From: a virus
Taxonomy: Duplodnaviria; Heunggongvirae; Uroviricota; Caudoviricetes
Reading direction: 5' to 3' (one strand)
Virus record (IMG/VR): IMGVR_UViG_3300028886_000047
DNA length: 64,000 bases
Under the pieces are notes generated by a model. The model had not been told where the DNA came from. It made no database searches and was given only the letters and a program-made list of their open reading frames with translations. The position numbers were made by a program, and so were the translations under genes. Position 1 is the stretch's first letter; the number at the start of each line of letters is the position of its first letter. Below, piece by piece: positions 31,261-64,000 of the stretch.

Positions 31261-31273
31261 TTAATTATTTTTT

Positions 31274-33418: not shown

Positions 33419-33441
33419 CTTATATTAAATTTAAAATGATT

Positions 33442-39680: not shown

Positions 39681-39683
39681 ATT

Positions 39684-41240: not shown

Positions 41241-41263
41241 TTTTTATAAAACTTAGTTTAGTA

Positions 41264-45709: not shown

Positions 45710-46029
45710 TGTTTTGTGTGCATAAATTCATATAAAAAGTTAGAAAAAGTTTGAGCCATTTCCTCAGAAAATTCAGTATTATAATACCATTGAAAAGAAT
45801 GAATTAGTTCGTGATAAAATGTTCTTTCCATATCTTCATCAGTCTGGTCATATACTTCATTTTCTTCCTCAACTTTTCTACCCAACTCTATCTCATTTCT
45901 TGCCGGAGAAAAATCTCCAAATCTGCCATCCTCTAATATATCTTTCTGAATAACTTTAATAGTTTTTCCACCTGCTATTTTAAACTCATTTGGAATATTC
46001 ATAATAATGACTTTAAAGTTTTTCCACAC
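45706..46029 (-). CDS. small HExxH metallopeptidase-like protein (YHELIHSF)
   Basis: A single HExxH motif. Located immediately downstream of the sigma factor gene. Confidence 0.3.
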   Translation of the reverse strand: MWKNFKVIIMNIPNEFKIAGGKTIKVIQKDILEDGRFGDFSPARNEIELGRKVEEENEVYDQTDEDMERTFYHELIHSFQWYYNTEFSEEMAQTFSNFLYEFMHTKQ

Positions 46030-46838: not shown

Positions 46839-47356
46839 ACTTGTCCAGTCTTCTCTAAATAACGATATAATTGATTTTGAGTAATTCCTTCTTTATACAT
46901 ACATTCCTGTCTAGATGAATAGGTTTTGCCATTATAAATACAAGTTTTGGCAGGTTTTCCGCTATTATTATGTTTATAATTTGGGTCAGTAAATCTTTCT
47001 ATCTGGTGTTGTTTTTTCTTTTCAATAACATCTCTGATTTCTTTTATAGATTGCAATTTTCTATGTCGAATTGGAGTATAGGATAATAACTTTATTTCAT
47101 AATGATTTTCCTTTATAAATTGAATTAGTTTTAACCAGTCTCTTTTTTTAATTCCTTCAAATTTGCCACAATAAATTCCTAATCCATTATCTCCATTTAT
47201 ATCCCAATCTAAAAGTTTTATAAGATTACTTCTTATTTTATTATCATCAGAAGTATCTTCATCACTATTGTACATATAACGAGCGTAAGCATTAATTAAC
47301 TTACGCTCGTCAATTTCTCTAAGAAGGTTTACATTAACAATTAATTGAATCATCAT
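46835..47356 (-). CDS. hypothetical protein
   Basis: Track ORF. Confidence 0.4.
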   Translation of the reverse strand: MMIQLIVNVNLLREIDERKLINAYARYMYNSDEDTSDDNKIRSNLIKLLDWDINGDNGLGIYCGKFEGIKKRDWLKLIQFIKENHYEIKLLSYTPIRHRKLQSIKEIRDVIEKKKQHQIERFTDPNYKHNNSGKPAKTCIYNGKTYSSRQECMYKEGITQNQLYRYLEKTGQV

Positions 47357-47403
47357 TCTGCCTCTTATATGTTACACGTTCTTCAAATTCAACATAATAC
47401 TTT

Positions 47404-48663
47404 TTAGTCATTTGGCATATCTTCTTCAATTCTTAAACTAGATACAGATGGTTGTAGAGGTGTTCCATCATCAGAAAGATAGAAATATTTTACAGTAGCA
47501 TAGTGATTCAAACACTCTTCTTCAAAATTATTAACATACCAGTCTTTTAAATCTCTATCTCCATGAGGCTTAGCTTTAAATTCAATTCCATCTTTTGTAA
47601 TAAGATTAAAAACCATATCTTCATTGCCTCTTAATCCAAGTTCATAACCTGTTATCAGGAACTCTGAAGATTTGTATTTTTTAATCTTAATCATATCATT
47701 CGATCTCCCGTTAGGTTTATAAACTTTACTAGGATCTCTAATTACTACTCCTTCCCAACCTTCAGATACATATTCATTATGTAAATTCATAATATTATCC
47801 CATCCACTAATCTTTATTTGAGGAACAAATTGAAGACGAAGTTCTCCACTGGAAAACTCTCTTTCTGGATTAAAGGTAATACTATATTGTTCGGCAATTT
47901 GTTTCATTTTAGATAACCTATCTTCAAAAGAAGAATTAATATCTAAAATATCATACCAATAGAATTGTAAAACTTCATAATCGACAGCTTTCTTTTGTGT
48001 ACGAGCAACAGAATTAAGTTGTTGTAGACTCATTCCATGGTGATAACATTCTCCATCAAGTATAAGTCCTGGGTTAGCTTTAAATATATCGATTAGAGTT
48101 TTATTGGAAAGAATTTCATACATAGCAGCATCATAATTCATAGCACCACGAGACTGAGTATGAAGTTCTCCATCTGTTCCCATATAAATCAAAGCTCGAA
48201 GTCCATCAATTTTGCGAGAAGCATACCACTCCTTATCAAATATTTTCATATTTGTAACTTTTTCACTTTGCTTAGCAAGCATTGGTTTAGGAACTCCATC
48301 TTGATTTGTTACTACTTCTCCAATGATATTATTTAATTCCTCTTCAGAATATGTTTCTGGGTCTCGTTCAATTTCTCTATAACCTTTATCAAGTTTTTCT
48401 TTAACTAAATGCTTAGCTTCAAGGTCAACTTGCTGCCAAAGATTGCGAGAAGCTTTCCCTCGTTCTACATATTTAGTAGGCTGTTCAGTAATTTTTCCAT
48501 GAAGTTGGCCTGAATATCTATAGATTTCAAACCAACGTTCACCCGTTTTTTCATCATTAACTAAAGAATAACTTATCTCTACTGTTCTGATTTTTCCTTT
48601 CGTATCTCGACTTATTAAATACCAAGTTCGTTCGTCTGGAATCCTTTCAAATAAATCATCCAT
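47404..48663 (-). CDS. lig: ATP-dependent DNA ligase (nucleotidyltransferase motif I KIDGLR, motif III/IV LILDGE, motif V GWEGVVIRD...KIKK)
   Basis: Motifs seen in the translation. Confidence 0.7.
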   Translation of the reverse strand: MDDLFERIPDERTWYLISRDTKGKIRTVEISYSLVNDEKTGERWFEIYRYSGQLHGKITEQPTKYVERGKASRNLWQQVDLEAKHLVKEKLDKGYREIERDPETYSEEELNNIIGEVVTNQDGVPKPMLAKQSEKVTNMKIFDKEWYASRKIDGLRALIYMGTDGELHTQSRGAMNYDAAMYEILSNKTLIDIFKANPGLILDGECYHHGMSLQQLNSVARTQKKAVDYEVLQFYWYDILDINSSFEDRLSKMKQIAEQYSITFNPEREFSSGELRLQFVPQIKISGWDNIMNLHNEYVSEGWEGVVIRDPSKVYKPNGRSNDMIKIKKYKSSEFLITGYELGLRGNEDMVFNLITKDGIEFKAKPHGDRDLKDWYVNNFEEECLNHYATVKYFYLSDDGTPLQPSVSSLRIEEDMPND

Positions 48664-49258
48664 TTATAAAATAAGTTTTTGTGTCTTTAGCCATATAATC
48701 ATACAATTCATCTAAAGTTTGAATATAAACTTGTGTTCCATCTGATTCTTCTAAATCTACATAACGGCCATCTGAATGGTCAAATAGATAGGCATTAATC
48801 ATGTCACATCCAGCTTCTGTAAAATGCGATTCTAAAAATGTGTCTAACATAAGTCCTACAGCATCTACAGCAGGAATATCGTAAATTGTACAATTAAAGA
48901 TTTTTTCAAATTCAGTTATTTTAGAATCAAATAATTCCCATTTTTTAAGATAATTTAGAAACAATTCTTTTGACAAGATTTCTTTTTTATATTGGGGTAA
49001 TTTATTTTTCATAAAATCAATAAATTCTTCAGCATTACTAAATTCTGGACACTCATCCCTATTAATTACAAAATACTTATTAATAGGTTTGCCTAGATTT
49101 TTCCTATATTCATTATACATATCAAGAATATTATAAAATTCTTCCAAATGCATTGCATCTGTGGATTTAAGGAAATCCTCGATTTTAATTACAAAATACT
49201 TTATATTTATATCTTTATAATATTCAAGACACTCTTTTATATATTCTTTATTAAGCAC
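48656..49258 (-). CDS. hypothetical protein
   Basis: Track ORF. Confidence 0.4.
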   Translation of the reverse strand: MLNKEYIKECLEYYKDINIKYFVIKIEDFLKSTDAMHLEEFYNILDMYNEYRKNLGKPINKYFVINRDECPEFSNAEEFIDFMKNKLPQYKKEILSKELFLNYLKKWELFDSKITEFEKIFNCTIYDIPAVDAVGLMLDTFLESHFTEAGCDMINAYLFDHSDGRYVDLEESDGTQVYIQTLDELYDYMAKDTKTYFING

Positions 49259-49766
49259 GCTTCAATCCTCCATCTTCACCACGAGAAGTATCTGATAATT
49301 CTTCTACCTCTATCCAAGTAGTAGGTTCAACTCGATTAAATTTAACTTGAGCAATAGCTGTTCCGTCCATTTTATATGGAGCCATTTCATTCTCCATCTC
49401 AATAAGATTTAATTCTTTATCTCCATCAGGAAACAGCTGCTCAAATGGTGTACGAAGTTTATAAATAACTAACCATTCTCCACGATATCCTGCGTCGATA
49501 GTGCCTGGCGCATTAGGTATATAAGCTTCTGTCTTAGTATTACTACTGCGAGGTCTTATTTCAGCTTCCCAATCAGGTGTAAATTCTGTAGCAAATCCAA
49601 GATGATAGATAAATCTATCTCGTTTTGTATCATATTCGTATGATACTGGAATTAAATCAAAACAAGCATCTTCAATAGGATGTTTTTTGAATGGAATTTG
49701 AGCATTTTCGTGTAGTTTCTTAATTTTTACTATCATTTTGTAACCATTTAATAAATTGATTAACAC
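49251..49766 (-). CDS. dut: dUTP diphosphatase (dUTPase)
   Basis: Motifs DACFDL, IRPRSS, GTIDAGYRGE, ...SRGEDGGLK. Confidence 0.7.
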   Translation of the reverse strand: MLINLLNGYKMIVKIKKLHENAQIPFKKHPIEDACFDLIPVSYEYDTKRDRFIYHLGFATEFTPDWEAEIRPRSSNTKTEAYIPNAPGTIDAGYRGEWLVIYKLRTPFEQLFPDGDKELNLIEMENEMAPYKMDGTAIAQVKFNRVEPTTWIEVEELSDTSRGEDGGLKRA

Positions 49767-50064
49767 TATTTCCGAGTTCGGAATAGAATACCTTAACTAC
49801 TTTGTCTTCATCATCTCTAACCTCTATAAATGGAAGTTTTTTGGCACTCCAATAATTAAGGATTTTAATTCCTTCTTTTCTTCCATGTAAAGAGTTCATG
49901 TTCAAATAGTTTATGAAAAAACCATTTGTATTACTTAATGTTAAATAATTTTTATCATTATCATTATTATAAACCAATGTTACTTTCATATCTCGGCATT
50001 TCTCTCCAATATTGCGGATGTACTTCACAATTCCATCTATATTGAATCCATTTATTATTTTCAA
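49720..50064 (-). CDS. hypothetical protein
   Basis: Track ORF. Overlaps 49967..50209, so one of the two probably uses an internal start. Confidence 0.3.
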   Translation of the reverse strand: MKIINGFNIDGIVKYIRNIGEKCRDMKVTLVYNNDNDKNYLTLSNTNGFFINYLNMNSLHGRKEGIKILNYWSAKKLPFIEVRDDEDKVVKVFYSELGNSVNQFIKWLQNDSKN

Positions 50065-50209
50065 ATTTACCTTCAGCAGTTCCTCCTTCTAAAGTATACA
50101 GCAGAATACTTCGACAATTATCGGGAAGATATTCTGTTGTATACCATTTAGAATTATTAAGTTTATACGGAATACTCTGTAATTTCATGAGTAATGGTAT
50201 CGATTTCAA
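49967..50209 (-). CDS. hypothetical protein
   Basis: Track ORF. Confidence 0.3.
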   Translation of the reverse strand: MKSIPLLMKLQSIPYKLNNSKWYTTEYLPDNCRSILLYTLEGGTAEGKFENNKWIQYRWNCEVHPQYWREMPRYESNIGL

Positions 50210-50900
50210 ATATTTTTCTACAATCTAAACACGCCCATTTATCTGTAATAAGTGGATTGTTTAATTGGGTATGTCCGAATACTTGATAAATTCCTTCTTC
50301 TCCAATCGGAACGATTTCTCCTTTCACTTCTGTCTCGTGATGATTTATATGTTCACGTATATCAGCCCATTCACAAGAACCACAACTATCCAATCCACCA
50401 CGATAATAAGAAACTGCTGCTAAATATCTATAGTTAGCAGAGTCCTTATCAAAATCAATCGATTGTTGTAAGAATTTTCCTAATTCTAAAACAGATTTAT
50501 CTAGAATTAGAAGTTTAGCCCATTCTTTAGTAATTCCAGCATGGGTAAATATTACATTATCAATTACATACCCAATAGTAAATAAATTCTGATTTTCTTT
50601 AATTATTCTTTCATATAATCCAGAAGAAATTCGATTATACCGACTACTTTCTGGAAAACCATTTAATACATAATGTAGTATATGATTTCCATATAGAAGT
50701 TCCACTTTTTCTAAATTATCCTTTTTAAATTGAATAATTTCTTCTAAACAATCTACTGGATTGTCATATAAAGTTTCTGGGTCTTCTGAAGGATATGGGT
50801 CAACATAATCTCCTAAAAAGATTATTTTATCACATTTAATATTAACTACATCTTTCCAAAATGTTCTTGAATGAACATCAGGTACTACTATTACTTTCAT
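50163..50900 (-). CDS. calcineurin-like metallophosphoesterase / Ser-Thr phosphatase-like
   Basis: VVPDVHS...LGDYVD...GNHILH motif series. Confidence 0.55.
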   Translation of the reverse strand: MKVIVVPDVHSRTFWKDVVNIKCDKIIFLGDYVDPYPSEDPETLYDNPVDCLEEIIQFKKDNLEKVELLYGNHILHYVLNGFPESSRYNRISSGLYERIIKENQNLFTIGYVIDNVIFTHAGITKEWAKLLILDKSVLELGKFLQQSIDFDKDSANYRYLAAVSYYRGGLDSCGSCEWADIREHINHHETEVKGEIVPIGEEGIYQVFGHTQLNNPLITDKWACLDCRKIFEIDTITHEITEYSV

Positions 50901-51144
50901 AGATACTCTTAAAATGTTTAAATATAGGTTCTAAATCTTTTTCGTCGGAAATACTCCAACCATGTTCTCCAGTTTTAAGATTAATATACTTACCACCTCC
51001 ACCATCTTTAGTTAAAAGTGTTAGCTCCTGAAAATCATCTTCTCCAGAACAATTATCTGGGCCTTGTAAATATTTTACTTGAATTTCATCAACAAGAACT
51101 TCGTTATCCTCTGGAAAACCATCAGTTATTAATTTTATTGACAT
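50878..51144 (-). CDS. hypothetical protein
   Basis: Track ORF. Confidence 0.4.
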   Translation of the reverse strand: MSIKLITDGFPEDNEVLVDEIQVKYLQGPDNCSGEDDFQELTLLTKDGGGGKYINLKTGEHGWSISDEKDLEPIFKHFKSIYESNSST

Positions 51145-51147
51145 ATT

Positions 51148-53463
51148 TCATGAACATTTAGTATAGCCACATAACACACATTCATTACATCCTCCAATAT
51201 GAGTCAATCCCTTCTGATGACATTCGGGACATTCTTCATATTCTGGATAAATTATTTCATGGCTTTTAATAGGACTTTCACATTCATTAGGAATACAATT
51301 ATGTATTCTTTCAAGAACTTCTTTATGCATATCTTTTAATGCAATTCCAACAGCTGTTGGACAACAAGCTCCTTTAGAAGTATCTTTCTTTGTAGCAGTA
51401 CGAACTGCATAAGATGGACAAACTCCACATGAATTAAGTTGATCTATAATTGCATCTATAGAAAGGCCTCCTCTTGCTGCAAGACTAATCATTCGTGAAA
51501 GACCAATCATAAAGTTTTGACATCCACCCTTAGAACCTTTACTAAGATATGTTTCTCTTAACTCTCCAGTAATAGAATCGAAGTAAGCGGTGCAATGTAA
51601 TGTTCCGCAGCCTGTTGTTAAGGTACGTTTGAGTCCAATACAGGTATCATCAGCTTTTACTACAAATCCTCTTGGAAGTTCATCATGTATAGCTTCTAAT
51701 TGAATGGGTTCTTCTACCTTTTCAGGTTTATCTGTTGTAAGAATACCTTCTCTTTTACATCCAGAACGATATACAGTTACTCCTTTTAATCCTCTTTCCC
51801 AAGCTTCAAGATATATATTATATACATCTTCTATTGTTGCTTTATTTGGAAGATTTATTGTAGAACTTATTGAAGCATCTGTATAGTTTTGTAAAGCAGC
51901 TTGTACTTTAATTCTATCAATTGGATTAATATCAGCAGACGTTACAAAGTAGTCAGGAAGTTTAACGTCTCCTGTAATCTTCTTATAATCTTCAACAATT
52001 TTAGAATCTACTTGATAATAAGTATCTCCTCCATTTAAAGATTGTGTTTTTCTTGTGTAGGATAGAGCGAAATAAGGTTCCAACCCAGTGCTGGTTTCAA
52101 GCATGGTTCCAATTGACCCAGTAGGCGCGCACGTAAGAAGCTGAGAGTTATATAATCCATAATCAGCAATCTGTCCTAATACAGATGCTGGAAGATTTAA
52201 TGCTTTAATAAAAGAAGAATTAATTAATTTTTCTTTATTACATTTTGGATAACATCCATGCTCCCTAGCAAGTGCCAATGATTCATATACTGCGTCGACA
52301 GCAATAGTTTTGTAAACTTCTTTAATTAAATTAATTGATTCTTCGCTACCATATTTTATGCCGAGTTTTATTAGCATCTCAGCAAGACCCATTGTACCTA
52401 ATCCGATTTGTCTCCAATCTCTAACAGTTTCTTGTTGTATAGAAAGTGGATGTAAAGTGAGTCCTTCAATAAGAACTTGATTCAAAGCCCTAGTTGCACC
52501 AATAACAGCTGTTTCTAAGGCATACCAATTGATACTAGCGTTCTTAGTAAATGGGTTGTCAACAAACATTCCAAGATTTATACTACCTAATAAACAGCTC
52601 CCTCCGGCTGGAAGAGGCTCTTCACTACAGGGATTGACTCCAGCATACTTAAATTCTTCTACATTATCAAGCATGTTATATTCTTCAATACGATTCCAAT
52701 ATAAAATGCCTGGTTCTGCATAATTCCAATTATTCTCTGCTAATTTCTTAAACAATTTAACTGGATTTACTATTTTATAATATACTCCATCTACTTCGTG
52801 AAGTTCTCCTTCTTTCCAGTCTAATGTATTGAATTCAGATTCGCATTTATCACATGGCCAAGATAATATATATCTATTAATTCCACGTTTTACAGCGTTC
52901 ATAAAATCATCTGTCACTCTAACAGATATATTAGCATATTTTATACGCTCTAAATCAGTCTTACAATCAATAAATTCTTCTATATCAGGATGATTAACAC
53001 TTAAAGAAATCATTGTTGCTCCGCGGCGGCCGTTCTGGCTTATTGTCTGAGTAACTTGACTATATAAATCCATAAAAGAGACTGGACCAGTGGATTCTTT
53101 AGCAGCATTGTGGGTAGTAGCTCCTCTAGGACGAAGATTACTTAGGTCTATTCCAACTCCGCCTCCATAACTAAATGTACGAGCCATTTGTTTAGCACAT
53201 TCAAGTATTGATTCCAGATTATCTTCAGGAGCTGGAAGTACATAACAATTACTTAAAGAACCTTTTTTACCCTTAATTCCTCTATTAGCAAGTATTCTAC
53301 CTCCAAAAATAAACTTTTTGGAGCGAATTAATTCCTTTATATCCTCTTGTCCTACACAAATTCTATCTAAAAATTCTTCAAAAGATTCATCTTCATTACG
53401 ATATTTTTTATTCCAAATATCTAATGATAATTGATTTCCATTTAACCATTCTTTTTCTGTCAT
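51148..53463 (-). CDS. nrdJ: ribonucleotide reductase large subunit, class II (adenosylcobalamin-type, NrdJ-like) with C-terminal Cys-rich zinc-ribbon tail
   Basis: GGGVGIDLSNLRPRGA...TGPVSFM and NPCSEEPLP...GSCLLGSINL match the class I/II active site. No R2 (NrdB) gene is nearby. C-terminal CPECHQKG...CNECVLCGY. Confidence 0.7.
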   Translation of the reverse strand: MTEKEWLNGNQLSLDIWNKKYRNEDESFEEFLDRICVGQEDIKELIRSKKFIFGGRILANRGIKGKKGSLSNCYVLPAPEDNLESILECAKQMARTFSYGGGVGIDLSNLRPRGATTHNAAKESTGPVSFMDLYSQVTQTISQNGRRGATMISLSVNHPDIEEFIDCKTDLERIKYANISVRVTDDFMNAVKRGINRYILSWPCDKCESEFNTLDWKEGELHEVDGVYYKIVNPVKLFKKLAENNWNYAEPGILYWNRIEEYNMLDNVEEFKYAGVNPCSEEPLPAGGSCLLGSINLGMFVDNPFTKNASINWYALETAVIGATRALNQVLIEGLTLHPLSIQQETVRDWRQIGLGTMGLAEMLIKLGIKYGSEESINLIKEVYKTIAVDAVYESLALAREHGCYPKCNKEKLINSSFIKALNLPASVLGQIADYGLYNSQLLTCAPTGSIGTMLETSTGLEPYFALSYTRKTQSLNGGDTYYQVDSKIVEDYKKITGDVKLPDYFVTSADINPIDRIKVQAALQNYTDASISSTINLPNKATIEDVYNIYLEAWERGLKGVTVYRSGCKREGILTTDKPEKVEEPIQLEAIHDELPRGFVVKADDTCIGLKRTLTTGCGTLHCTAYFDSITGELRETYLSKGSKGGCQNFMIGLSRMISLAARGGLSIDAIIDQLNSCGVCPSYAVRTATKKDTSKGACCPTAVGIALKDMHKEVLERIHNCIPNECESPIKSHEIIYPEYEECPECHQKGLTHIGGCNECVLCGYTKCS

Positions 53464-53560
53464 ATAAAATAAAAGGTTTAATAAATATATTAAATTGAAC
53501 TTATAATATACCTATCAAACCTTAAAAATCAAAGTTAAAAACTAATTATATTAATAAATG

Positions 53561-53809
53561 TTAATTTGTTTTTGGAAAACAAAATTTATTTCTAATCATT
53601 CTATTCCATGTAATTTCGGACTCTTCATGAAATGGGTCATCAATTAAATAGCAAAGTTCACCCGAATTAGTTTCTCCAACAGGACATTCAGAGTGTGTAA
53701 TAATGTCACAATTATAAAGTATTTGTCCGAATCTCCAATCTGGATATTTATTAACTAATTCTTGTAACTTATCAACTATAGCTTGATTATACATTTTTCT
53801 AAATTTCAT
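53561..53809 (-). CDS. hypothetical protein
   Basis: Track ORF. Confidence 0.4.
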   Translation of the reverse strand: MKFRKMYNQAIVDKLQELVNKYPDWRFGQILYNCDIITHSECPVGETNSGELCYLIDDPFHEESEITWNRMIRNKFCFPKTN

Positions 53810-54591
53810 AAATCAAGAATGTCTTGTAATAATAGTGTTTTTTCAAATAAGTTGAAAAAGTCTTTCTTTATATTATTTGTGATAACATTTGTAAAAGCAT
53901 TATATACTGAATACATTGGAATTTCAGGTTTATTTTCAAAATAATATTCAGAATCTTCTTTTTCAAATAATGCCTTATAAGCATCAATAGCAGTTGAAAC
54001 AGCTAATTTGCTCTTTCCAAAATGATTATCATAAGAATAATTTAAACAATTTCTTACCCATTTTCCAAGAGATTCATTGATATGATAATCATCACATTCA
54101 AAAGATTTTTCTGTTAACTTATTTAACCAAGCAGCAGTATCATCAGTTTGGCGAATAATATTATCTAATGGTTTATAATCAACAGCTGTATTAGCCTCTA
54201 ACTCTTGACAACTTAACAGTTGTGGAGAAAATACACAGAGATTAGTGCAGCTTTGTCTTTCCATCCCTTTGAAAAACTTTATTACAGGCTTTTTTACATC
54301 AATTCCAAAAACCATTCCAATAACTCCTTTATGAGGGTCGTTTGAAAATTTATACTCATCAGGAAGAATGGCTTCTATAAGAACTCTATTATAAGTAATA
54401 TCATCTGTAACAATATTTCCATTAGAATCAAATGTTACTTGTTTCGGAAGTTGAGCTTGAACTCGAAATTCAGAAGTTAATTTAAGTAACCTATCTAAAA
54501 ACGGTTCAACATATGCAGCAGTTGGAAAGTATTCCTTTCCTCCAATACGAGTAGCTTTACCTTCAAGAAGAGTGTTTAATTCAATATTCAT
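53806..54591 (-). CDS. hypothetical protein
   Basis: Track ORF. Confidence 0.4.
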   Translation of the reverse strand: MNIELNTLLEGKATRIGGKEYFPTAAYVEPFLDRLLKLTSEFRVQAQLPKQVTFDSNGNIVTDDITYNRVLIEAILPDEYKFSNDPHKGVIGMVFGIDVKKPVIKFFKGMERQSCTNLCVFSPQLLSCQELEANTAVDYKPLDNIIRQTDDTAAWLNKLTEKSFECDDYHINESLGKWVRNCLNYSYDNHFGKSKLAVSTAIDAYKALFEKEDSEYYFENKPEIPMYSVYNAFTNVITNNIKKDFFNLFEKTLLLQDILDL

Positions 54592-54938
54592 TGTTCATCA
54601 TCATAATTAATATCTGAAATATCTTTTACAGAATTATTATTATAATAGAAATAATTTGTAATATAATCTACTAATTGATTTTCGCTATATTCTTTAGCGT
54701 CGAGAAACAATATTTTGGCTTGATTAAATTCTTTTTCAGTTAAGGAAATTTCAATACGATGTCCTCTATAAAGTATGATTATATAATTTCCATTTAATAT
54801 AAATGAAAGTGTGTACTGATTTGATTCATTATAGATTGTTATATAATCACTAGCACCAGTTGCTCCAATATTTAATCTTTTATCCATTGCTTCTCGAATA
54901 AAAGATTCTATTTTTGAATATTCTATTTTATTCTCCAT
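54588..54938 (-). CDS. hypothetical protein
   Basis: Track ORF. Confidence 0.4.
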   Translation of the reverse strand: MENKIEYSKIESFIREAMDKRLNIGATGASDYITIYNESNQYTLSFILNGNYIIILYRGHRIEISLTEKEFNQAKILFLDAKEYSENQLVDYITNYFYYNNNSVKDISDINYDDEQ

Positions 54939-55590
54939 AATAATTTTGTTTTATTTGTTCTTCATTAATTTCAATATCTTTATTCCTATATTTCTTCCAA
55001 TTTTCTATAACAGCTTCTTTATTTGAACTGGGACTTGGCCCAAAATATACAGACATTTGAAAAGAGTTTAAATCACGAGTCCAATTAAAGAATTGGCCAG
55101 CCATATCAAGAAATTCAAAGAATTTGTTTTGAAGTTGTTCTGATATTTCTACGAAACTGGGATCAACTTGTTCTAAAATAATCTCTAACTCCTTTTCTAA
55201 ATTATTAGGATGTTCATATCCCCTATGTCCAGGTTCGCCTTTCTTTCCTTCTATATATTTATTAACAATTGGACACTTACAATAATTTTTAAGGATTTCT
55301 ATTATATCAAGAAGATTCTGTTGCTCATCCAATTTATAAGCATATATATACGAATTACAAACATCTTCTATTACATCTCCTGGAAGATAATAAAATTCAA
55401 ACGGTTTCGGGCCTACAAATTCTGAATACGAAGGTTTCTCTTCTAAAGCTTCATATTCAGCTTCTTTTTCTTTAAAAATTCTATTCTCTTCTTTAAATGC
55501 TTCCCAAGATACAGAAGGTTGAGCTAAACTATAAAGCTCCATTAGACATTCCTTAACCGCTTTATTAAGAACATCATATCTTGTTAACAT
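54928..55590 (-). CDS. hypothetical protein
   Basis: Track ORF. Confidence 0.4.
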   Translation of the reverse strand: MLTRYDVLNKAVKECLMELYSLAQPSVSWEAFKEENRIFKEKEAEYEALEEKPSYSEFVGPKPFEFYYLPGDVIEDVCNSYIYAYKLDEQQNLLDIIEILKNYCKCPIVNKYIEGKKGEPGHRGYEHPNNLEKELEIILEQVDPSFVEISEQLQNKFFEFLDMAGQFFNWTRDLNSFQMSVYFGPSPSSNKEAVIENWKKYRNKDIEINEEQIKQNYYGE

Positions 55591-56026
55591 AGTCTAGTAC
55601 TTTATTCAATTTACTTACACTAAAAGAATTTAATCTTACAATAATATTATCAATTATAGAATTTTCAGAATTTCTTATAGATAATGCCTCATACAATTCA
55701 TCATAATTAACAATAGTCCATTTAGGGAAGGCATCTTTTATAGCTAGAAGGTCTTCTATATAATCTATTCCACTAAGTTCAAACTCCCGTGAGTCTACAT
55801 TAACACACCAAGCATAACAATCATTAGATTGAATATCTAAATGTTTGTATATATATTGAGTTATAAGACTTTCCGCTAATTCGTCGGAGTTCATTATATA
55901 TTCTGAATCTATGCGCAATTCGTCAAAATCTTCAGTTACTGATTTATCAAATAAATCTAAAAGTTCATTAAACTCAGTTTCAGATATAACACCTATCTTT
56001 TCTAAATACTTTTTATACATATTCAT
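55574..56026 (-). CDS. hypothetical protein (start moved to the internal ATG at 56026 to avoid overlapping the upstream recoded gene)
   Basis: The track ORF spans 55574..56044. The recoded HEG ends at 56031. Confidence 0.35.
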   Translation of the reverse strand: MNMYKKYLEKIGVISETEFNELLDLFDKSVTEDFDELRIDSEYIMNSDELAESLITQYIYKHLDIQSNDCYAWCVNVDSREFELSGIDYIEDLLAIKDAFPKWTIVNYDELYEALSIRNSENSIIDNIIVRLNSFSVSKLNKVLDYVNKI

Positions 56027-56030
56027 TTTC

Positions 56031-57140
56031 TTATAAATTTTCAAAAAAATTATTTAATATATTATTAATTTTTTCTTGAGTATTATATTCATAAGATATT
56101 TCTAACAATTTAATTTTATTATTATTACAATAATCTCTTATATACTAATCTCTTTTCTACTAATGTTCAAAAGCTATCTATCCTCCACTAAATCCCATAG
56201 GAATATAATGTTGCTATCCATTATATTCAATAGCTAAATTATATTTTGGAATATAGAAATCTATTTTAGCTACTCCAGACTTATTTATTGATTTATCTAT
56301 ATCTATAATATAATTTCTTTCAAATTCTATATTATTATTTACAAAATAAGTCCTTATAAACTTTTCTCCGTGAGATTCGGAACATTTAAGACAACCTTGT
56401 TCTTGTCCATTTATATGATTATTAGGTTTCATCCAAAATTCTCCGTGTTCTGGGCATATAATACACACTTTAGTATGATTATTTATATAATTAACTTTAC
56501 TATAATCATATTTATTACCATGAATTTTATTTGCTTTGTCAATAAATGTTTCAGTTGTTAATTTATTATTTCCAGCACATTTTGGACAACCACACCCCTA
56601 AACGTGATCTCTTGGTTTTTGTTCGAATTCTCCATGTGTGGGACAAATAATTTTTATAGGAGTAAAAACTCCTTTATAATTTACTAAAGAATAATCATAT
56701 TTATCTCCGTGGACTTTTCTAGCCTTTTCTATAAAGTCGTTATTATTTGATACTTTATTTGCACATTTAGGACATCCCTATCCATTCAAATGAGAATAAG
56801 CTTTTTGTTGAAATTCTCCATGTTCGGGACATATTATAACAATATCATTATGTGCTCCAGTATATTTAGACTTAGAATAATCATATTTGTTCCCGTGAAT
56901 TTTTATAGCTTTTTCTATCCACTATTCTGTAGTTATTTTAATTGATTTTGCACATTTTGGACATCCTTGTCCGCGTTTATGTACATAAGCCTTTTGTTCA
57001 AAATCTCCGTGAATAGGACAAGTTATGGTTATTTTTGTCTAGGAATTTATATAATTTGTCTTACTATAATCATATTTATTATTGTGTTTCTATTTACAAA
57101 TTTCTATAAATTCTTCATTAGTTAATTTATTTTTAATCAT
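56031..57140 (-). CDS. homing-endonuclease-like protein: four tandem zinc-ribbon repeats plus C-terminal Vsr/DUF559-like (EDxHD-family-like) nuclease domain; TAG-recoded (~11 in-frame TAG)
   Basis: ATG 57140-57138 to TAA 56033-56031. Four ~50-aa repeats of [E.FIEKA.KIHGNKYDYS...IICPEHGEF.QK..H.NGQGCPKC]. C-terminus IDFYIPKYNLAIEYNGQQHY fits the DF...IE.DG..H Vsr-like pattern. The track shows only 56214..56468. Confidence 0.6.
56390..57128 (-). repeat. four tandem ~150-nt coding repeats (zinc-ribbon units) within the recoded HEG
   Basis: Repeat units aligned by eye. TAG occupies positions where sister repeats have CAA (Gln). Confidence 0.55.
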
Positions 57141-57142
57141 AT

Positions 57143-58672
57143 TTAAATATTATTAAATGTACCTCTAATTAAATTATCTCCTAAAAATAAATCATAAGAC
57201 ATTCCATATGAATTTCTACTAAAATTATAATTAGAATAATCAGAAGCTCCAAATAAACTTAAAACATTTCTATAATCAATTAATTTACAAGAATTTAAAG
57301 CATCAGAGTGCAAATCTCCTTTAATAAAATGTATAGGGTTTTTAGATTTTATATTATTTTCTGTAATCCACTCATACAATAATACTTTAGTAGAATCATT
57401 TAAGTTTAATGGGAATCCTTTTTTCATGTATTGATCTTCTTTTCCATGAAGGCAAATAAAGGTATGATTATTTAATTCAAAACTACCATAAAATTCTTCC
57501 CATAAAGTAGTTTCTATTTCTGGAAACTTAACATTAATTGTTGATAATAAAGCTTTATTACATACATATTCAAAGTTTCCTCCGTGATTTCCACAAGGAA
57601 CAGAATATACATTAATTTTAGAATAGAATTCTTTTGTATTAACTATGGACTCTATAAACCAAAGCATTAAATTAATATATTTATTTGCTTGTTCTCTAGC
57701 ATCCATATTTTCTGGCATAGTATGGTCTAATCTTGATGTTTTTCCAACAAATCCACAACAATCAATGTTGTCTCCCATTAATACTAAATTAATACAATTA
57801 TAAGACCCAATTTCTTTAATTTTGTATAATATACACTCTAATCTTCTTTTAGCTTCATCAAAGCCATAATTTTCATTTTCTTTATATAAAGATCCAGTAG
57901 TTACTGTGGCTCCTAAGTGTATATCTGATATATATAAGTTTATATCCGAATTTGATTTATTTTTAGTATAATTTAAATTTATACTTTTTATGGAGTCATC
58001 CAAAATAATTTTAAATGATTCTAATGATTCTAATTTTCTTTTTAATTCAATATTTTCATTAGCATATTGTTTTAAAAGCTTTTCATTGTTTTTAATTATA
58101 TCAGATTCAGCTTTTCTGAGAAAACTATTCTCTTTTTCACGTAATTGAATATCTCTTAACTCTTCTTCACTTAATTCCTCAAACATATGAGGGGCAAAAG
58201 GAGCCGAACTTTTTGTTATTTGAAAACACCTCAAAATTCTTTTAAAATCTACTAAAGAATATTCCGGAAAATTTCTAGAAATAACACGCTGTGTTAATGA
58301 ATCTCCATAATATGAATATAATCTATACACTAGATTCATTTCTTCTCTAGAAAATTTTCCAATAATTGGGTTTTTATTTTTTCTAAATATTTCAAAAGTA
58401 TAATATTGAATCAATCCATTTTCATCCCGTTCTACTTTAGTAACAGCTCTATCGTCTGTCTCAATTTCTTCTTTATTAGTAGAAACATTTCTTTTACATT
58501 GTGAATAAATATCTAAAAATTCTTTAATCAATTCAACTGGATGATCAGAATCTATAATATTCTGTCTAGCTTGATAATAATAATTAGCTTTATGTTTCTT
58601 ATTATTTAATGATTTATACTTTCTCAAGTCTTCGATGATTTCATGTATTTTGCTTTCACTAATTTTATTCAT
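57143..58672 (-). CDS. metallophosphoesterase with N-terminal coiled-coil (SbcD/Mre11-like nuclease candidate)
   Basis: YISDIHLG...LMGDNID...CGNHGG motif series. Confidence 0.45.
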   Translation of the reverse strand: MNKISESKIHEIIEDLRKYKSLNNKKHKANYYYQARQNIIDSDHPVELIKEFLDIYSQCKRNVSTNKEEIETDDRAVTKVERDENGLIQYYTFEIFRKNKNPIIGKFSREEMNLVYRLYSYYGDSLTQRVISRNFPEYSLVDFKRILRCFQITKSSAPFAPHMFEELSEEELRDIQLREKENSFLRKAESDIIKNNEKLLKQYANENIELKRKLESLESFKIILDDSIKSINLNYTKNKSNSDINLYISDIHLGATVTTGSLYKENENYGFDEAKRRLECILYKIKEIGSYNCINLVLMGDNIDCCGFVGKTSRLDHTMPENMDAREQANKYINLMLWFIESIVNTKEFYSKINVYSVPCGNHGGNFEYVCNKALLSTINVKFPEIETTLWEEFYGSFELNNHTFICLHGKEDQYMKKGFPLNLNDSTKVLLYEWITENNIKSKNPIHFIKGDLHSDALNSCKLIDYRNVLSLFGASDYSNYNFSRNSYGMSYDLFLGDNLIRGTFNNI

Positions 58673-58705
58673 TTTTCAATGTTTTATAATGTGTTTAAAC
58701 GCAAA

Positions 58706-58727
58706 AACGCTGGCCGAAGCCAGCGTT
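58706..58727 (-). terminator. GC-rich hairpin aacgctggc-cgaa-gccagcgtt followed by a U-rich tract on the minus strand
   Basis: Seen directly. Lies between 58750..59337 and 57143..58672. Confidence 0.45.
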
Positions 58728-58749
58728 CTATTAAGAGAAGAAATTTGAA

Positions 58750-59337
58750 TTAATCTACATTTACATAACCAAATGCAAGAATCTTACAGGGCTGAGCACC
58801 CTTACTCGGAGTGTACTTAACAGTAGCATAAAGAGAGTTCTTCTCCTTAGAAACCCACTCATAGTTAATAGTTACATCTTCTTTAAAATCAATTACATAT
58901 TCCTTTGCAGCAGCTTCTGCCTCCTTAGAAGTCTTCTTACGACCAACTTCCTGACCTGTCGCATCACGGAGAACATAGAATTTCTCAGGACTGTGTGTAC
59001 GTGCATCATACTTAGGTTTCTCAACCTTATACGGACGTTCACGAGTATCAAGTGAATGAGATTGAGTTACGATATAAGCACCAACACCAGCCTTATCATA
59101 CTTCTTCTTCTTCAAATACTCCTTCATCCATTCCTTCTGAGATTCCTCACTAACTACATTCTTTTCAGCATATTTCTTCCAAGACTGGGTAGCATCTACC
59201 ATCATTACGAGACCCTGTGCTTCAGTTGAGTTCTTTGCTTCATCTTTGGTTGTACCAATAGTTTCAAATTTCTTAAATACCTTAGTCATAAAATAAAAAT
59301 AATTTACATAAATTCCATTCGAGATTTTTCTCGACAT
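58750..59337 (-). CDS. hypothetical protein with locally elevated GC / atypical codon usage (likely start MTKVFKKF at ~59287)
   Basis: Track ORF. GC-richer codons than its neighbours. Flanked by hairpins. Confidence 0.45.
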   Translation of the reverse strand: MSRKISNGIYVNYFYFMTKVFKKFETIGTTKDEAKNSTEAQGLVMMVDATQSWKKYAEKNVVSEESQKEWMKEYLKKKKYDKAGVGAYIVTQSHSLDTRERPYKVEKPKYDARTHSPEKFYVLRDATGQEVGRKKTSKEAEAAAKEYVIDFKEDVTINYEWVSKEKNSLYATVKYTPSKGAQPCKILAFGYVNVD

Positions 59338-59434
59338 AAACTATCTACTTTTATGAACTATCTACTTACTTTTCTCTCTAAGAAAGTAATCTTAAAGTAT
59401 CTTGTTGTTTAAAATTTTATATAATTAAAAAATG

Positions 59435-59776
59435 TTAAAACGGAATATAACTTTTTAGAATTGCGACAATCTCTTTTAAAATTGATTTTCCCTCAAGCCC
59501 AAAAGTTGGAAAGTCTGAACAAGAATATGCAAAGTCCTCACAAACTATCGCCAGCCCTTTTATAAAGGTGTCTGGAAGTCCTAAATTTTTACTCAATTTC
59601 ATAATTATTTCATAATGAGTAATATCAGGATTTTTTAGTTTTGCTTTGTACGTTACATAACATATTAGACTTATAAGCACCATTCGGTTTTCTATAGCAC
59701 TTCTTCCATTAGTCGTAGATATATATCCTAAACTAAAATTTTCAGAATATAACCTTCTTAATTCATCAAACTTCAT
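59435..59776 (-). CDS. hypothetical protein
   Basis: Track ORF. Confidence 0.4.
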   Translation of the reverse strand: MKFDELRRLYSENFSLGYISTTNGRSAIENRMVLISLICYVTYKAKLKNPDITHYEIIMKLSKNLGLPDTFIKGLAIVCEDFAYSCSDFPTFGLEGKSILKEIVAILKSYIPF

Positions 59777-60803
59777 TGAATGAAAATCCTTTATATTTAT
59801 TTAAATAAAATACTGTTTTGAGAAGATATTTAAATTCTCCAAATCCAGATTTAAATAACTGGGGAGTCATGGGATATACCATTGTAGTATAATTAGGAAC
59901 TGTTGATACTACTAAGAAATTTCCACGAATTTTCGGATTCTTTAAATCAAAGAATTTTTCTGAACAATATTTTAAAAGCCAAGAATAAATAGCTAATTCT
60001 CTTTGATAATGAAAATAAGTAAGGTCAAAATCTACAGCTAACCTTGACGTAGTTTTCAAATCATTAACAGTAATAGTATTTTCTTCCTTGTCGACAGTAA
60101 AATTATCTAATTTAGCTTTTAATTTATAAATTTCAGAATAATTTTCATCTTCCATTTTTACATCTAAAAGTATAGCTCTTTCATTAGCTGAATATACTGG
60201 TTCCAGTAATCCTTTAGGATGTAACAAATCCTCGAAGTTTTTATCTTTTTTAACAGATTCAATAACATTTTTTAATAAGATTACAGACTTTTCATCTGTA
60301 TAAATTCTTTTAATATTGGGATTTAAAGGGTTATTTTGTTCATAAATATACCTATCCCTCCAATAAGGTTCTGCTCTATTCTTAAAATCAAGTAACCTAT
60401 TAGATGTTAAACTATCTTTATAGTAATTACACTTAACGGATGCTACTTTAATTTCATCATCAGTTATCTGATCTCCATTATCTTTATAAAGATAATCAGC
60501 CACAACTCCAGCTTTCGCAGTAGGCTTGAATACAGAATCTATCAATTCAAAAGATTCTGGTTGAAGGACAAGTTGATGAAGCATGCTGCCAAAGTTAAAA
60601 CTTTGGCTAAAGGAATTATCATCTACAAATCCTTCAAAGAAAGACTCTGCTCCATCTTTAATTAGTTTGCCTAAACGTGAATTTGAAATATAATTACTAT
60701 ATCTTTCACTAAAATATTCGTCGTCTGATATATCTTCTAATTTAAGAGTATCTAATAACGGAGTTATTTTAATTTGTTTAATTACTTCATAATCAACTTC
60801 CAT
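59766..60803 (-). CDS. possible PD-(D/E)xK nuclease (YqaJ/lambda-exonuclease/Cas4-like)
   Basis: ...ITVNDLKTTSR...YFHYQRELAIYSWLL resembles the ExK ... QxxxY motif arrangement. Weak. Confidence 0.3.
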   Translation of the reverse strand: MEVDYEVIKQIKITPLLDTLKLEDISDDEYFSERYSNYISNSRLGKLIKDGAESFFEGFVDDNSFSQSFNFGSMLHQLVLQPESFELIDSVFKPTAKAGVVADYLYKDNGDQITDDEIKVASVKCNYYKDSLTSNRLLDFKNRAEPYWRDRYIYEQNNPLNPNIKRIYTDEKSVILLKNVIESVKKDKNFEDLLHPKGLLEPVYSANERAILLDVKMEDENYSEIYKLKAKLDNFTVDKEENTITVNDLKTTSRLAVDFDLTYFHYQRELAIYSWLLKYCSEKFFDLKNPKIRGNFLVVSTVPNYTTMVYPMTPQLFKSGFGEFKYLLKTVFYLNKYKGFSFNEV

Positions 60804-60807
60804 AAAA

Positions 60808-61728
60808 TTAATATACAGTGAATATTCTATTTAAATAAGGTTTATTTTGTTTTGATATTTTAGTAATAGAACTTCGTACATTTGAAATATTTGCGTTGGT
60901 TAATCCTTCATCAATTAATACTTGTGCACAGGCTTTTACAGATTTAAATTTTCCAAGTTCATTTCCATCTAAATCATACATTATTACTTTAATTTTATCA
61001 TATGGATAAATATAAGTATCAATAGTACGACCTTTATATAAAAAATGAAAATCCTTAGCAGTTTTTGAAAAATCTTTAAGGCATTTACTCATTCTAGATC
61101 TATCTATAAATAATTTTTGACACGCGTCTAAAGCTGTTTTCCATTCTTTTATAAAATATCCATCTGAAGAATACTGCAAAACTGGAGTACTAATAGTATT
61201 TTTATTATGTTTATTTACTTCTATTTTTTCAGGAGAATCTTTAGTCCATTTTATAAATGTATATTCTTTTAATAATTTTAAGTTGCTAGTTACACATTGC
61301 ATTATTCTACTAGGTAGAACATCAAAATCTTTAGCAGCTTCGGCATAAGAAGCATAATCTTTATATAAATTCCCATCAGAATCAAAACATCTTAATGCTA
61401 CATATGTCATATTTAATACTTTTTTTTCTAATTTTTTATATTTAAAAACATATTGAGCTTCTTTAATTCTAGCTTCTTCACTATTTTTTATGCCTGATTC
61501 TAATATAGTCATTTCTATATTTCTCCAATTATCTAATACCCATTTATGTTTTTCTTCGTTTTTTGAAGTATTATTAACAGATTCTTCAAAATGTTTAAAT
61601 AATCTTTGTATTACATAATTACTATTAGTAATTCCAACATAAACAGTTTCTGGAGTATCCTTACAAGTTAATAAATAAACAGAATATTCCCCATTTTCAT
61701 TTTTAATTGTTTCTAATTTATTTTCCAT
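60808..61728 (-). CDS. GIY-YIG homing endonuclease with three C-terminal NUMOD/IENR-like DNA-binding repeats (standard code)
   Basis: YSVYLLTCKDTPETVYVGITNS...RLFKH. Repeated ...GxFKSxxEAAKxxxIxxSxIxxC... units. Confidence 0.6.
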   Translation of the reverse strand: MENKLETIKNENGEYSVYLLTCKDTPETVYVGITNSNYVIQRLFKHFEESVNNTSKNEEKHKWVLDNWRNIEMTILESGIKNSEEARIKEAQYVFKYKKLEKKVLNMTYVALRCFDSDGNLYKDYASYAEAAKDFDVLPSRIMQCVTSNLKLLKEYTFIKWTKDSPEKIEVNKHNKNTISTPVLQYSSDGYFIKEWKTALDACQKLFIDRSRMSKCLKDFSKTAKDFHFLYKGRTIDTYIYPYDKIKVIMYDLDGNELGKFKSVKACAQVLIDEGLTNANISNVRSSITKISKQNKPYLNRIFTVY

Positions 61729-61776
61729 ATATTTATATTTTTAGTTCAAAATAAATATATGGTTTTAAATTAAAAT

Positions 61777-62325
61777 TCAAAGAAGGAATTTCTTAAAATT
61801 TGTTAAAAATGATTCCTTCATCATATAATATGATTCTTCTATTTCTTCATAATTTAATGAATAAACTCGTCCTATCGGTCCCCAATTTTGATTAAATGGA
61901 GTATCCATCAATAAACATGGAACTCCAGAACAATTCATTTGAATAAAATTGTTAATACTGTCATCTATAAATACATCAACTCTGCCTTTGATGTATCTAG
62001 CCTTATTATCTATTTGGCAGTATACTTGATACACAGGTTTATGAGGAAATCCGTTATTATCTAACCATTCTTTAGAATAAGTTTTTAGACAACTCCTTTT
62101 TGTACAATATAATTTAGGTTCAAATCCTATAGGATACTGAATTACTGGAAGATTTAACCAAAAATTTCTATCCTTATTTATAACTTGACTACAAATTCTA
62201 GTTATGTCTGCATCATCTTTTGGATTAAATCTTTTAAAAAAAGGTCCTGACCAATCAGCCAGAACCTCATCTATATCTAATCCAATTTCTAAACGTTTAA
62301 TCATTCTCAGTCTTACTAGGTTCAA
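61777..62325 (-). CDS. HAD-superfamily 5'(3')-deoxyribonucleotidase
   Basis: GLDIDEVLAD (DxDxV motif I) and VFIDDS (motif IV). Confidence 0.55.
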   Translation of the reverse strand: MNLVRLRMIKRLEIGLDIDEVLADWSGPFFKRFNPKDDADITRICSQVINKDRNFWLNLPVIQYPIGFEPKLYCTKRSCLKTYSKEWLDNNGFPHKPVYQVYCQIDNKARYIKGRVDVFIDDSINNFIQMNCSGVPCLLMDTPFNQNWGPIGRVYSLNYEEIEESYYMMKESFLTNFKKFLL

Positions 62326-62440
62326 CCATCAAACCAGTTTCAAGTCTAAATGTTTCCTTTTCTTCCTTAGAAAGATTCTTGTAAGACGTAATAAGTCTCT
62401 TTACGTAAGTTTCTCTAATTTTCTGCATAATTCTTATAAT

Positions 62441-62665
62441 TTAAATGGTATCATAATCTTCAACATCGCTAAAATCTATTCCTAGATTTTCGTTCATCCA
62501 ATCACAAAATTCTTCATAGGTAGAAAAATCAGTATCTATATCATATTTTTCAATATATTTTTCTATAATTCTTTCTTCAGCATCATTATAAGATGTTCCG
62601 AAAATTGTTTTTACTTGAGGGCGAGTTTCGTAACTGCCTACTGCATAAACGTATTTACTAAGCAT
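62441..62665 (-). CDS. hypothetical protein
   Basis: Track ORF. Confidence 0.4.
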   Translation of the reverse strand: MLSKYVYAVGSYETRPQVKTIFGTSYNDAEERIIEKYIEKYDIDTDFSTYEEFCDWMNENLGIDFSDVEDYDTI

Positions 62666-62740
62666 TTTTTTATTTTATTGTTTGTTTAAATTTAATGCTA
62701 TATAGTTTTCAATATCTTTCTCTTTATATAAAATTACTAT

Positions 62741-63301
62741 TCAGTTGTTTTTTTCATTTTCATATGAATGTAATTTCATTTTTAAATAATCCCACAAAAT
62801 ATCAATATCTACTATAGCAACAGTTCCGGGACTGTTTCCACCATTTTTATCTTGCTTTTTCCAAATTATAGTAAAAGGAAGAGTTTTTATTGGACACTCT
62901 TCCCTAATTTTAAAATATGAAGGTAGAGTTTGTGTGCATTTTGCTTGGATTAAAATGGGCAAATTCCCATCAATATCATAAATATCGACCTTTGAAGCAT
63001 CTAAAGCCTTATTCTGAGCTCTAGAGCTACAAGTGTTATAACCAATCTCATTTAATTTATGCACAATATCTAACTCTAACTGATTCCCTTTTTGTCGAGA
63101 CCTTTTACTAATATAATGTCTCTTTGTACTAGGATCTATCCACTCACATTTTAATCCATCTTTACCAGAGGTTCCCTTATTTGCTCTAATTTTAATGGCT
63201 CGTTCGGATAATCCTGTTATAGTGGCCTTTTCAATAGAGTCATATACATATGTATTCCCACCTTTATCCGTTATTTTTACTCCTGTATTTAACTACTTCA
63301 T
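62741..63301 (-). CDS. endonuclease-like protein (N-terminal NUMOD-like segment, C-terminal D...D...QxK PD-(D/E)xK-like motif) with TAG as its third codon
   Basis: ATG 63301, then AAG, then TAG (63293-63295), after which the frame is open to TGA 62741. The ATG overlaps the upstream TGA (ATGA). The track starts it at an internal GTG. Confidence 0.4.
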
Positions 63302-63603
63302 AATGTTTGTTCTATAAAATCACATAATGCACATAGTACAAAATCTAAATCATCTATTGTCATAAAATCTCCAATAGTATCATTATATCCTCTCCGAATT
63401 TGATACATTCCATAATAATCTGGACATGGGTCTGTTCGTTCTGGAGAATAATCATTATGGAAGTCTTGCCAATCTATATAAATATTAGCATTTCCACATA
63501 AACGATTAATTTCCCCAACATCTATTAATAATGCTTTTAATAAATTACGTTCTCGTTCACTAATGGGTAACGCATTTATATCTTTTCTTCCTTCAATTTT
63601 CAC
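63298..63603 (-). CDS. hypothetical protein (GTG start in track)
   Basis: Track ORF. Confidence 0.3.
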   Translation of the reverse strand: MKIEGRKDINALPISERERNLLKALLIDVGEINRLCGNANIYIDWQDFHNDYSPERTDPCPDYYGMYQIRRGYNDTIGDFMTIDDLDFVLCALCDFIEQTL

Positions 63604-64000
63604 TTAAATATTTATTTAAAGTATATAAATTAATTTTTTCTAATATACAACACTGTTTTTTAGATTTATATTCCTTTCCTTTATAAATTACTGGTTTAGC
63701 ATTTTTTGGTGGAATATAATTATCTGAGAAATAGTTACTGGTTTTTTCTTCTTTCTGTGCAATAACTTTATTATGTAATTCAATTCCTTCCTTTTCTAAT
63801 TCTAAAGCTCTTTTGTTTAAGTATTCTATATTAGAAAAAGTCCAATCTTCTAACCAATCTAGAATTTCGTTTGGACATTCTACTCCTATAGGAACATGGA
63901 AATTTCCTTCTACCCATTGTTTCCAAAAATCTCTTATTTCATTATGAATATCATGTTTATTAGCCCATCCAAAATCAATATTAAAAGTAGGAGGTTCAAT
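63593..64000 (-). CDS. hypothetical protein, 5'-partial (continues beyond the window edge)
   Basis: Minus-strand frame is open from 64000 to TGA at 63595-63593. No Met in the window, so it is absent from the track. Confidence 0.35.
   Translation of the reverse strand: MEPPTFNIDFGWANKHDIHNEIRDFWKQWVEGNFHVPIGVECPNEILDWLEDWTFSNIEYLNKRALELEKEGIELHNKVIAQKEEKTSNYFSDNYIPPKNAKPVIYKGKEYKSKKQCCILEKINLYTLNKYLSEN

Follow-up and report, generated by a model that had tools for sequence, protein, structure and literature searches.

A TAG-recoded, free-standing and mobile homing endonuclease gene in the replication module of a Caudoviricetes phage

The 64,000-nucleotide stretch of IMG/VR virus record IMGVR_UViG_3300028886_000047 (Caudoviricetes), which in its entirety is referred to here as the window, carries on its minus strand, at 56031..57140, an open reading frame (ORF) that contains ten TAG codons and encodes a zinc-finger endonuclease. 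We consider it probable that this ORF represents a free-standing gene for a homing endonuclease, undamaged and mobile in the recent past, lodged in the replication module of a gut-type phage in which TAG has been reassigned to glutamine (Gln), and that the enzyme is translated once TAG is decoded and then acts in homing. The initial annotation had described a TAG-recoded endonuclease gene inside an otherwise TAG-free block, and this description is borne out, the 36 surrounding ORFs containing no TAG at all.

Reading frame and integrity of the gene

The ORF runs from an ATG at 57140 to a TAA at 56033..56031, exactly as initially drawn, and constitutes a complete, free-standing coding sequence of 369 sense codons followed by TAA (PHROG 559/681/9084; Pfam DUF723 and DUF4379). 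Neither TAA nor TGA occurs in the frame before the terminal TAA, against 20 and 60 such codons in the two other frames of the same stretch, and the probability of a TAA/TGA-free frame over 369 codons, calculated from base composition, is ~4e-14. The in-frame TAGs had been put at about 11; they number ten, at codons 17, 34, 73, 121, 181, 309, 321, 327, 328 and 332 (first bases at 57092, 57041, 56924, 56780, 56600, 56216, 56180, 56162, 56159 and 56147, respectively). With TAG read as Gln, the Gln codons of the gene comprise 10 TAG and 9 CAA.

Copies of the gene are found in related loci, which are designated here by L numbers. Those of L002/L003 and of L033, recovered from other samples, are 94-95% identical to the window copy at the amino acid (aa) level, keep all ten TAGs and contain no indels. 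Their changed codons are divided into 21 synonymous and 22 non-synonymous in the first case and 29 and 18 in the second. Set against about three non-synonymous sites for each synonymous site, these counts indicate purifying selection. Decay into a pseudogene had been named at the outset among the outcomes that would refute the initial reading. No frameshift is present, the ten TAGs are conserved without indels in the ~95%-identical copies, synonymous changes are in excess relative to sites, and the catalytic and zinc-binding residues of the window copy are intact. By these sequence features, the gene is intact and not a decayed pseudogene.

Architecture of the encoded protein

The protein is composed of four CHCC zinc-finger repeats of the DUF723/CapR-like, DNA-binding type, followed by a Vsr-like nuclease domain of the EDxHD type. 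Pfam matches to DUF723 and DUF4379 (treble-clef zinc finger) lie above threshold, PF05265 scoring 52.7 bits (cut-off 20.9) and PF14311 38.5 bits (cut-off 24.5), while PHROGs returns endonuclease and homing-endonuclease families at E values of 1e-85 to 1e-23. The family is widespread: homologues are present in 1208 GenBank phage records, frequently several per genome, and 7990 of 8000 scored candidates among database proteins match at E <= 1e-20.

The four tandem zinc repeats proposed initially are confirmed as four units of 62-63 aa, each carrying one C-x2-H...C-x2-C site and sharing 50-61% aa and 60-65% nucleotide (nt) identity with one another. Tandem Repeats Finder leaves these ~189-nt repeats undetected, owing to the low identity (60-65%) between them. 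Repeat 1, of the DUF723/DUF4379 type (aa 5-67; 56940..57128, minus strand, as for all parts of the gene), contains TAG codons 17 and 34; repeat 2 (aa 68-129; 56754..56939) contains codons 73 and 121; repeat 3 (aa 130-192; 56565..56753) contains codon 181; and repeat 4 (aa 193-255; 56376..56564) is free of TAG. In repeats 2-4, which align unambiguously, the Cys and His columns are invariant or, for C123, at least 90% conserved. At codon 251, in repeat 4, CLKC of the window copy stands against CPKC in its close orthologues (L002 and P0001), a rare non-conservative difference. In phage homing endonucleases, repeated CapR/DUF723/DUF4379 fingers have been described as the modules that bind DNA (Barth et al. 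2023, PMC10448857).

The C-terminal domain (aa 256-369; 56034..56375) contains the remaining TAG codons, 309, 321, 327, 328 and 332. An AlphaFold model built from 63 homologues is confident (predicted local distance difference test, pLDDT, 92.7) and predicts a Vsr/EDxHD homing-endonuclease fold, so that the resemblance suggested earlier for this domain is upheld at the level of fold. Residues D294, E305, G308, Q310 and H311 are invariant among homologues, and conservation reaches at least 90% at E259 and D331 (63 homologues). The candidate catalytic residues are E259, D294, (E305, N307), H311 and D331; the EDxHD family is characterised by the residue order E...D...H...D (PMC3239194). The Asp-to-His spacing of 17 equals that of D196 and H213 in I-Bth0305I, a match by order and spacing only.

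Assignment of TAG to glutamine

Four independent comparisons between homologous genes point to TAG being read as Gln. Gln310, in the nuclease motif, is present without exception among the homologues (85 of 85). Its codon is CAA in the window copy as well as in three of four clade paralogues, and TAG in the fourth (L023 12933..13592). At column 327, the window gene and the four clade paralogues read TAG, CAA, TAG, TAG and CAA. The same interchange is seen in other genes of the phage. A second recoded gene, at 40518..41240, keeps seven of its TAGs in the 89%-identical orthologue of L034, where one of the others is CAA and one CAT. Between the late gene at 1248..4730 and its 85%-identical fragment in L089, five TAGs are kept, CAA is replaced by TAG twice, CAG by TAG once and TAG by CAA once, and no exchange between TAG and a non-Gln codon occurs. 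Across the ten TAG columns of the endonuclease gene, the log-odds calculated from the homologues reach 5.6 nats for Gln, the next residue being Arg at 1.9, and in P0001, a 95%-identical copy, the database gene caller had already placed Gln at all ten sites. A degenerate-pattern search of the JGI metagenomes yielded only contigs of 1-2 kb, which are usable for TAG/CAA comparison. In crAss-like phages, the reading of TAG as Gln has received published proteomic support (Peters et al. 2022, PMC9523058).

The initial annotation had reached the same assignment by another route, namely that the repeats of the gene themselves show TAG to equal Gln. The assignment stands, through the interchange seen in paralogues and orthologues; the argument from the repeats does not. 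The residue before GCPKC is indeed encoded by CAA in repeat 1 and TAG in repeat 2 (codon 121), as had been noticed, and by TGT and CAA in repeats 3 and 4. Once the repeats are aligned at the codon level, however, this is the only one of five TAG columns in which TAG pairs with CAA. The other four, contrary to what the repeat argument demands, pair with codons for E/D/T, K, H/F and R/N, and the repeats alone are therefore insufficient to establish the meaning of TAG. Nor is there any alternation of Gln codons and TAG in the HGEF(E/Q)QK positions: all Gln codons of this motif are CAA, and it is free of TAG.

Mobility and recombination

The endonuclease gene exactly fills the interval between two neighbours, with gaps of 2 nt and 4 nt. 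Upstream, up1 (57143..58672, minus strand) encodes a metallophosphoesterase/exonuclease-like protein of 509 aa and contains no TAG; its stop lies 2 nt ahead of the endonuclease ATG. Downstream, dn1 (55574..56026, minus strand), also without TAG and absent from L002, has an in-frame ATG at 56026, 4 nt past the endonuclease stop. The up1/dn1 site is occupied by the endonuclease in L001-3, L030 and L033; between the same flanking genes, the endonuclease is absent from L013, L014, L016, L018 and L024, in which up1 is ~53% identical. Paralogues reside at other sites in L015, L016/17, L023 and L035, with 1, 9, 7 and 5 TAGs, respectively.

Comparison with L002 reveals a sharply bounded pattern of exchange. 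Nucleotide identity between the two phages is ~70% two genes upstream, rises to 99-100% across 58119..56920, remains at 91-96% over the rest of the endonuclease gene and falls to ~40% exactly from its stop codon at 56031. The tract at 56920..58119 comprises the 3' part of up1 and ~220 nt at the start of the endonuclease gene, and is read as a probable recent gene-conversion or recombination tract. Nuclease genes at the boundaries of exchange between phages are a pattern already described (PMC10448857). Sporadic presence at a fixed site is thus found together with co-conversion of the flanks, the combination expected of a homing endonuclease, and the gene is mobile, probably recently so.

Several further observations concern the same region. 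ENA sample ERZ27256887 carries the phage at 99.98-100% identity, assembled as two contigs (k141_1258196 and k141_324866), both of which break inside the identity tract, at ~57944 (the end of L031) and ~58084 (the end of k141_1258196); these breaks suggest that recombinant variants co-occur in the sample. The up1 orthologue is itself interrupted in L019-L022 (7095..8394), by a 1.3-kb insert with a LAGLIDADG ORF that contains no TAG, and in L023 (6978..7536), by an insert of ~560 bp. A megablast of 54000..60000 against GenBank phages, an exact look-up of up1 and a search of the JGI metagenomes with an exact 35-mer from the left end of the window each gave no match.

Coding blocks of the window

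The window is divided into two blocks that differ in their use of TAG. The plus strand of 1..30257 is open only if TAG is a sense codon, and its giant ORFs contain 189 TAGs in 10110 codons. Two of them, 4727..13447 (2906 codons, 52 in-frame TAGs) and 13416..24323 (3635 codons, 68 in-frame TAGs), resemble the giant genes of crAss-like phages in size only. One late protein of this block (24320..25375) has a single distant relative in IMG/VR. The minus strand of 30300..64000 contains 36 standard-code ORFs that amount to 8305 codons without a TAG and that end in TGA (19) or TAA (17) and never in TAG; TAG is avoided here in both roles, sense and stop. The block is devoted to DNA and nucleotide metabolism, with a family A DNA polymerase split into two parts, a DNA ligase, a sigma factor, exonucleases and the large subunit of ribonucleotide reductase.

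All neighbouring genes had been described as free of in-frame TAG. This holds for the 36 ORFs just mentioned and fails for two others, so that three genes of the minus-strand block bear TAG, all of them endonuclease or endonuclease-like. The second recoded gene (40518..41240, minus strand; HNH/endonuclease VII-like; PHROG 3322/1035) follows immediately after the second part of the DNA polymerase and has nine Gln codons, all TAG, with no CAA or CAG; compared with its orthologue, it has accumulated 49 synonymous and 27 non-synonymous changes. The third (30310..31020, minus strand; endonuclease-like, T5orf172/MUG113 with NUMOD1) has six TAGs and two CAAs and is the last minus-strand gene, located where the divergent blocks meet and the guanine-cytosine (GC) skew flips. 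Together the three genes hold 25 TAGs, a concentration that differs from the rest of the block with a Fisher p of ~2e-27. TAG accounts for 53%, 75% and 100% of their Gln codons, compared with 37% in the giant ORFs.

The same block contains two homing endonuclease genes of the GIY-YIG type, both on the minus strand and both without internal TAG. One (42001..42939) lies between the two pieces of the family A DNA polymerase (43034..44710 and 41264..41923, minus strand); it is the only gene of the module with a standard-code TAG stop, and a Gln reading of that codon would add 15 residues. Rfam recognised no group I intron around the split polymerase, giving no match at the gathering threshold in the whole window and none at E <= 1 in 40300..43200. 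The other (60808..61728; GIY-YIG with NUMOD1), a standard-code gene, is absent from the otherwise syntenic L002, and represents a second insertion polymorphism with a different coding style.

In a survey of 1170 ORFs from related replication-module loci, those with at least three TAGs were inspected and proved to be either artefacts of 5' extension or endonuclease genes. The genuine cases comprise DUF723-EDxHD paralogues, a LAGLIDADG gene (L024) and, assigned by eye, an HNH-like gene (L023 9483..10046); L075 has an HNH_3+NUMOD gene with two TAGs. TAG-rich ORFs in L004, L041, L043, L048, L061, L062 and L070 were rejected, their TAGs lying upstream of the likely true start. A 133-residue ORF with six TAGs in L078 (1283..1684) appears by eye to encode a membrane protein, possibly of lysis type, and not an endonuclease. 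TAG-free endonuclease genes occur as well, namely the GIY-YIG pair of the window and the LAGLIDADG insert of L019-L022. The association between TAG and endonuclease genes across these relatives is suggestive and does not amount to a rule.

Proposed mechanism and alternative explanations

The endonuclease gene is inserted without spacer into an array of genes that are otherwise free of TAG. Because gaps of 2 nt and 4 nt leave no room for a promoter, co-transcription with the standard-code neighbours is most likely. The surroundings of the gene showed no terminator on the minus strand. On a transcript shared with the neighbours, translation under the standard code of the host would halt at codon 17, and the full-length enzyme would be produced only after TAG is decoded as Gln, which would place its translation late in infection. 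The initial view, that the gene would yield nothing or only a truncated product before TAG suppression sets in, is a reasonable inference. The decoder would presumably be a phage suppressor transfer RNA (tRNA) encoded outside the window, as in crAss-like phages. The enzyme may then cut endonuclease-less alleles of co-infecting relatives, presumably near the up1/dn1 junction, and recombinational repair would copy the endonuclease gene together with its flanks.

Several observations weigh against this interpretation. ARAGORN searches of the 64-kb window and of about 90 related loci (L001-L087) returned no tRNA, and hence no suppressor, at least 50 kb of the genome lying outside the search; the machinery that decodes TAG and the time at which it acts are therefore presumed. 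A scan for sigma-70-type promoters shows no enrichment, with 32 sites against 26.6 +/- 5.0. The TAGs of the endonuclease gene fall mainly in variable columns, so that this gene, taken alone, gives modest support to the Gln reading. The putative correspondence of the EDxHD residues is one of order, spacing and fold, and sequence and profile searches against PDB chains, 3R3P included, gave no match. Finally, the two TAG-free GIY-YIG genes demonstrate that recoding is not necessary for an endonuclease to reside in the module, and speak against a general rule.

It is conceivable, if rather unlikely in our judgement, that the recoding is passive. Dispensable, selfish endonuclease genes that move among TAG-recoded phages would gather TAG through relaxed constraint or carry it from their origin; as their early translation was never required, TAG would be tolerated, and delayed expression would not have been selected. 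Among relatives, the replication-module ORFs that carry TAG do belong to unrelated endonuclease families (DUF723-EDxHD, HNH_3+NUMOD and LAGLIDADG), and the coexistence of the TAG-free GIY-YIG pair is expected if TAG content merely reflects history. The endonuclease genes are also richer in A and T than their neighbours (GC 21-25% against 29%), and their synonymous codon usage, Gln excluded, is nearer to that of the recoded block than to that of any neighbour, which fits either view. Yet the TAG shares of the three genes exceed that of the giant ORFs and lie above what simple equilibration would give, all three genes have a TAG within their first 17 codons, and ten of ten TAGs are conserved in the endonuclease gene while 43-47 other codons changed.

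Two other explanations fare worse. If the TAGs were real stops, the gene would be a decaying pseudogene whose only product is a 16-residue peptide, as might be argued from a standard-code frame broken ten times and from the failure to find a suppressor tRNA. The intact frame, the TAG positions shared by orthologues and the synonymous excess effectively refute this reading; the catalytic and zinc-binding residues are moreover preserved, TAG fills the invariant Gln position in the L023 paralogue, and the plus-strand block, with ORFs of up to 3635 codons, requires TAG as sense, leaving decay with almost no probability. The protein might instead have been domesticated as a nuclease or DNA-binding factor to the benefit of the phage, for example to degrade host DNA or to act against competitors or satellites. 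Such a role would be compatible with the purifying selection on the gene and has a parallel in the co-option of DUF723/CapR-type domains in phage-satellite conflicts (PMC10448857). We nevertheless regard it as very improbable, since presence and absence at the site, paralogues elsewhere and a recombination tract bounded by the gene are signatures of homing endonucleases.

Relation to known systems

The code-15 recoding of phages and homing endonucleases of the EDxHD and DUF723 kinds are already known, and so are endonuclease genes of early regions that are written in an altered code. The conserved acidic and His residues of the protein appear in the order seen in I-Bth0305I (PDB 3R3P), the prototype of the EDxHD enzymes, and with its Asp-to-His spacing; with the EDxHD enzymes in general, phage Hef-type enzymes among them, the protein shares an N-terminal DNA-binding region joined to a C-terminal nuclease in a mobile, phage-borne gene. 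It differs from them in having four DUF723/DUF4379 zinc fingers in place of NUMOD/HTH (helix-turn-helix) modules, in being encoded by a free-standing and not an intron-encoded gene, in its ten TAG codons read as Gln, and in showing no detectable similarity to 3R3P. The CapR/DUF723/DUF4379 endonucleases described in PMC10448857 likewise combine finger repeats with a nuclease, and their genes lie at the edge of exchanged tracts; those are T5orf172 nucleases of standard-code phages, whereas the window gene is recoded and its nuclease Vsr-like.

The arrangement of the window, a TAG-sense block beside a block compatible with the standard code, recalls the crAss-like code 15 phages (PMC7886860, PMC9523058), which also have giant ORFs in the recoded block, numerous inserted endonuclease genes and a DNA polymerase of family A. 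Their intron ORFs have been shown to contain recoded codons (Yutin et al. 2021, PMC7886860). The likeness rests on block-wise TAG recoding, giant ORFs, contigs of 130-190 kb among the relatives and the density of endonuclease insertions; no signature gene of Crassvirales (capsid, terminase or structural block) lies in the window, and the sequence examined showed no suppressor tRNA.

The closest precedent for the timing proposed here is the group I intron endonuclease of the 'Agate' phages, also an early-region gene preferentially written with a reassigned stop codon. A translational delay was proposed for this TGA-recoded intron endonuclease (Borges et al., bioRxiv 10.1101/2021.08.26.457843), according to which the enzyme is not made until late infection. 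In the 'Agate' phages, TGA is read as Trp and the gene is intron-encoded, whereas in the window TAG is read as Gln, the gene is free-standing, and three nuclease families are represented in one module. What is modestly new is that a TAG-recoded gene of this kind stands free, and that the three TAG-bearing genes of the module belong to different endonuclease families.

Significance

These findings have a practical side, in that standard gene callers miss or truncate such genes when they lie in blocks taken to be of standard code. The up1/dn1 junction of endonuclease-less relatives offers a concrete substrate on which both homing and its timing could be studied. If the proposed mechanism is correct, a switch of genetic code would partition a single operon into ~36 genes that the host can read and three interleaved nuclease genes that need TAG suppression, which would extend the translational-delay idea from a TGA-recoded intron endonuclease to TAG, to free-standing genes and to three nuclease families.

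A broader possibility, which we advance tentatively and do not favour, is that in this clade the free-standing EDxHD, HNH, T5orf172 and LAGLIDADG genes are systematically overloaded with TAG, beyond the level of the late structural genes, and that the code switch acts as their shared translational timer. If this were true, such a timer would allow selfish nucleases to occupy early operons without being expressed early, and a general rule, not a single anecdote, would connect changes of the genetic code with the way in which mobile elements spread.
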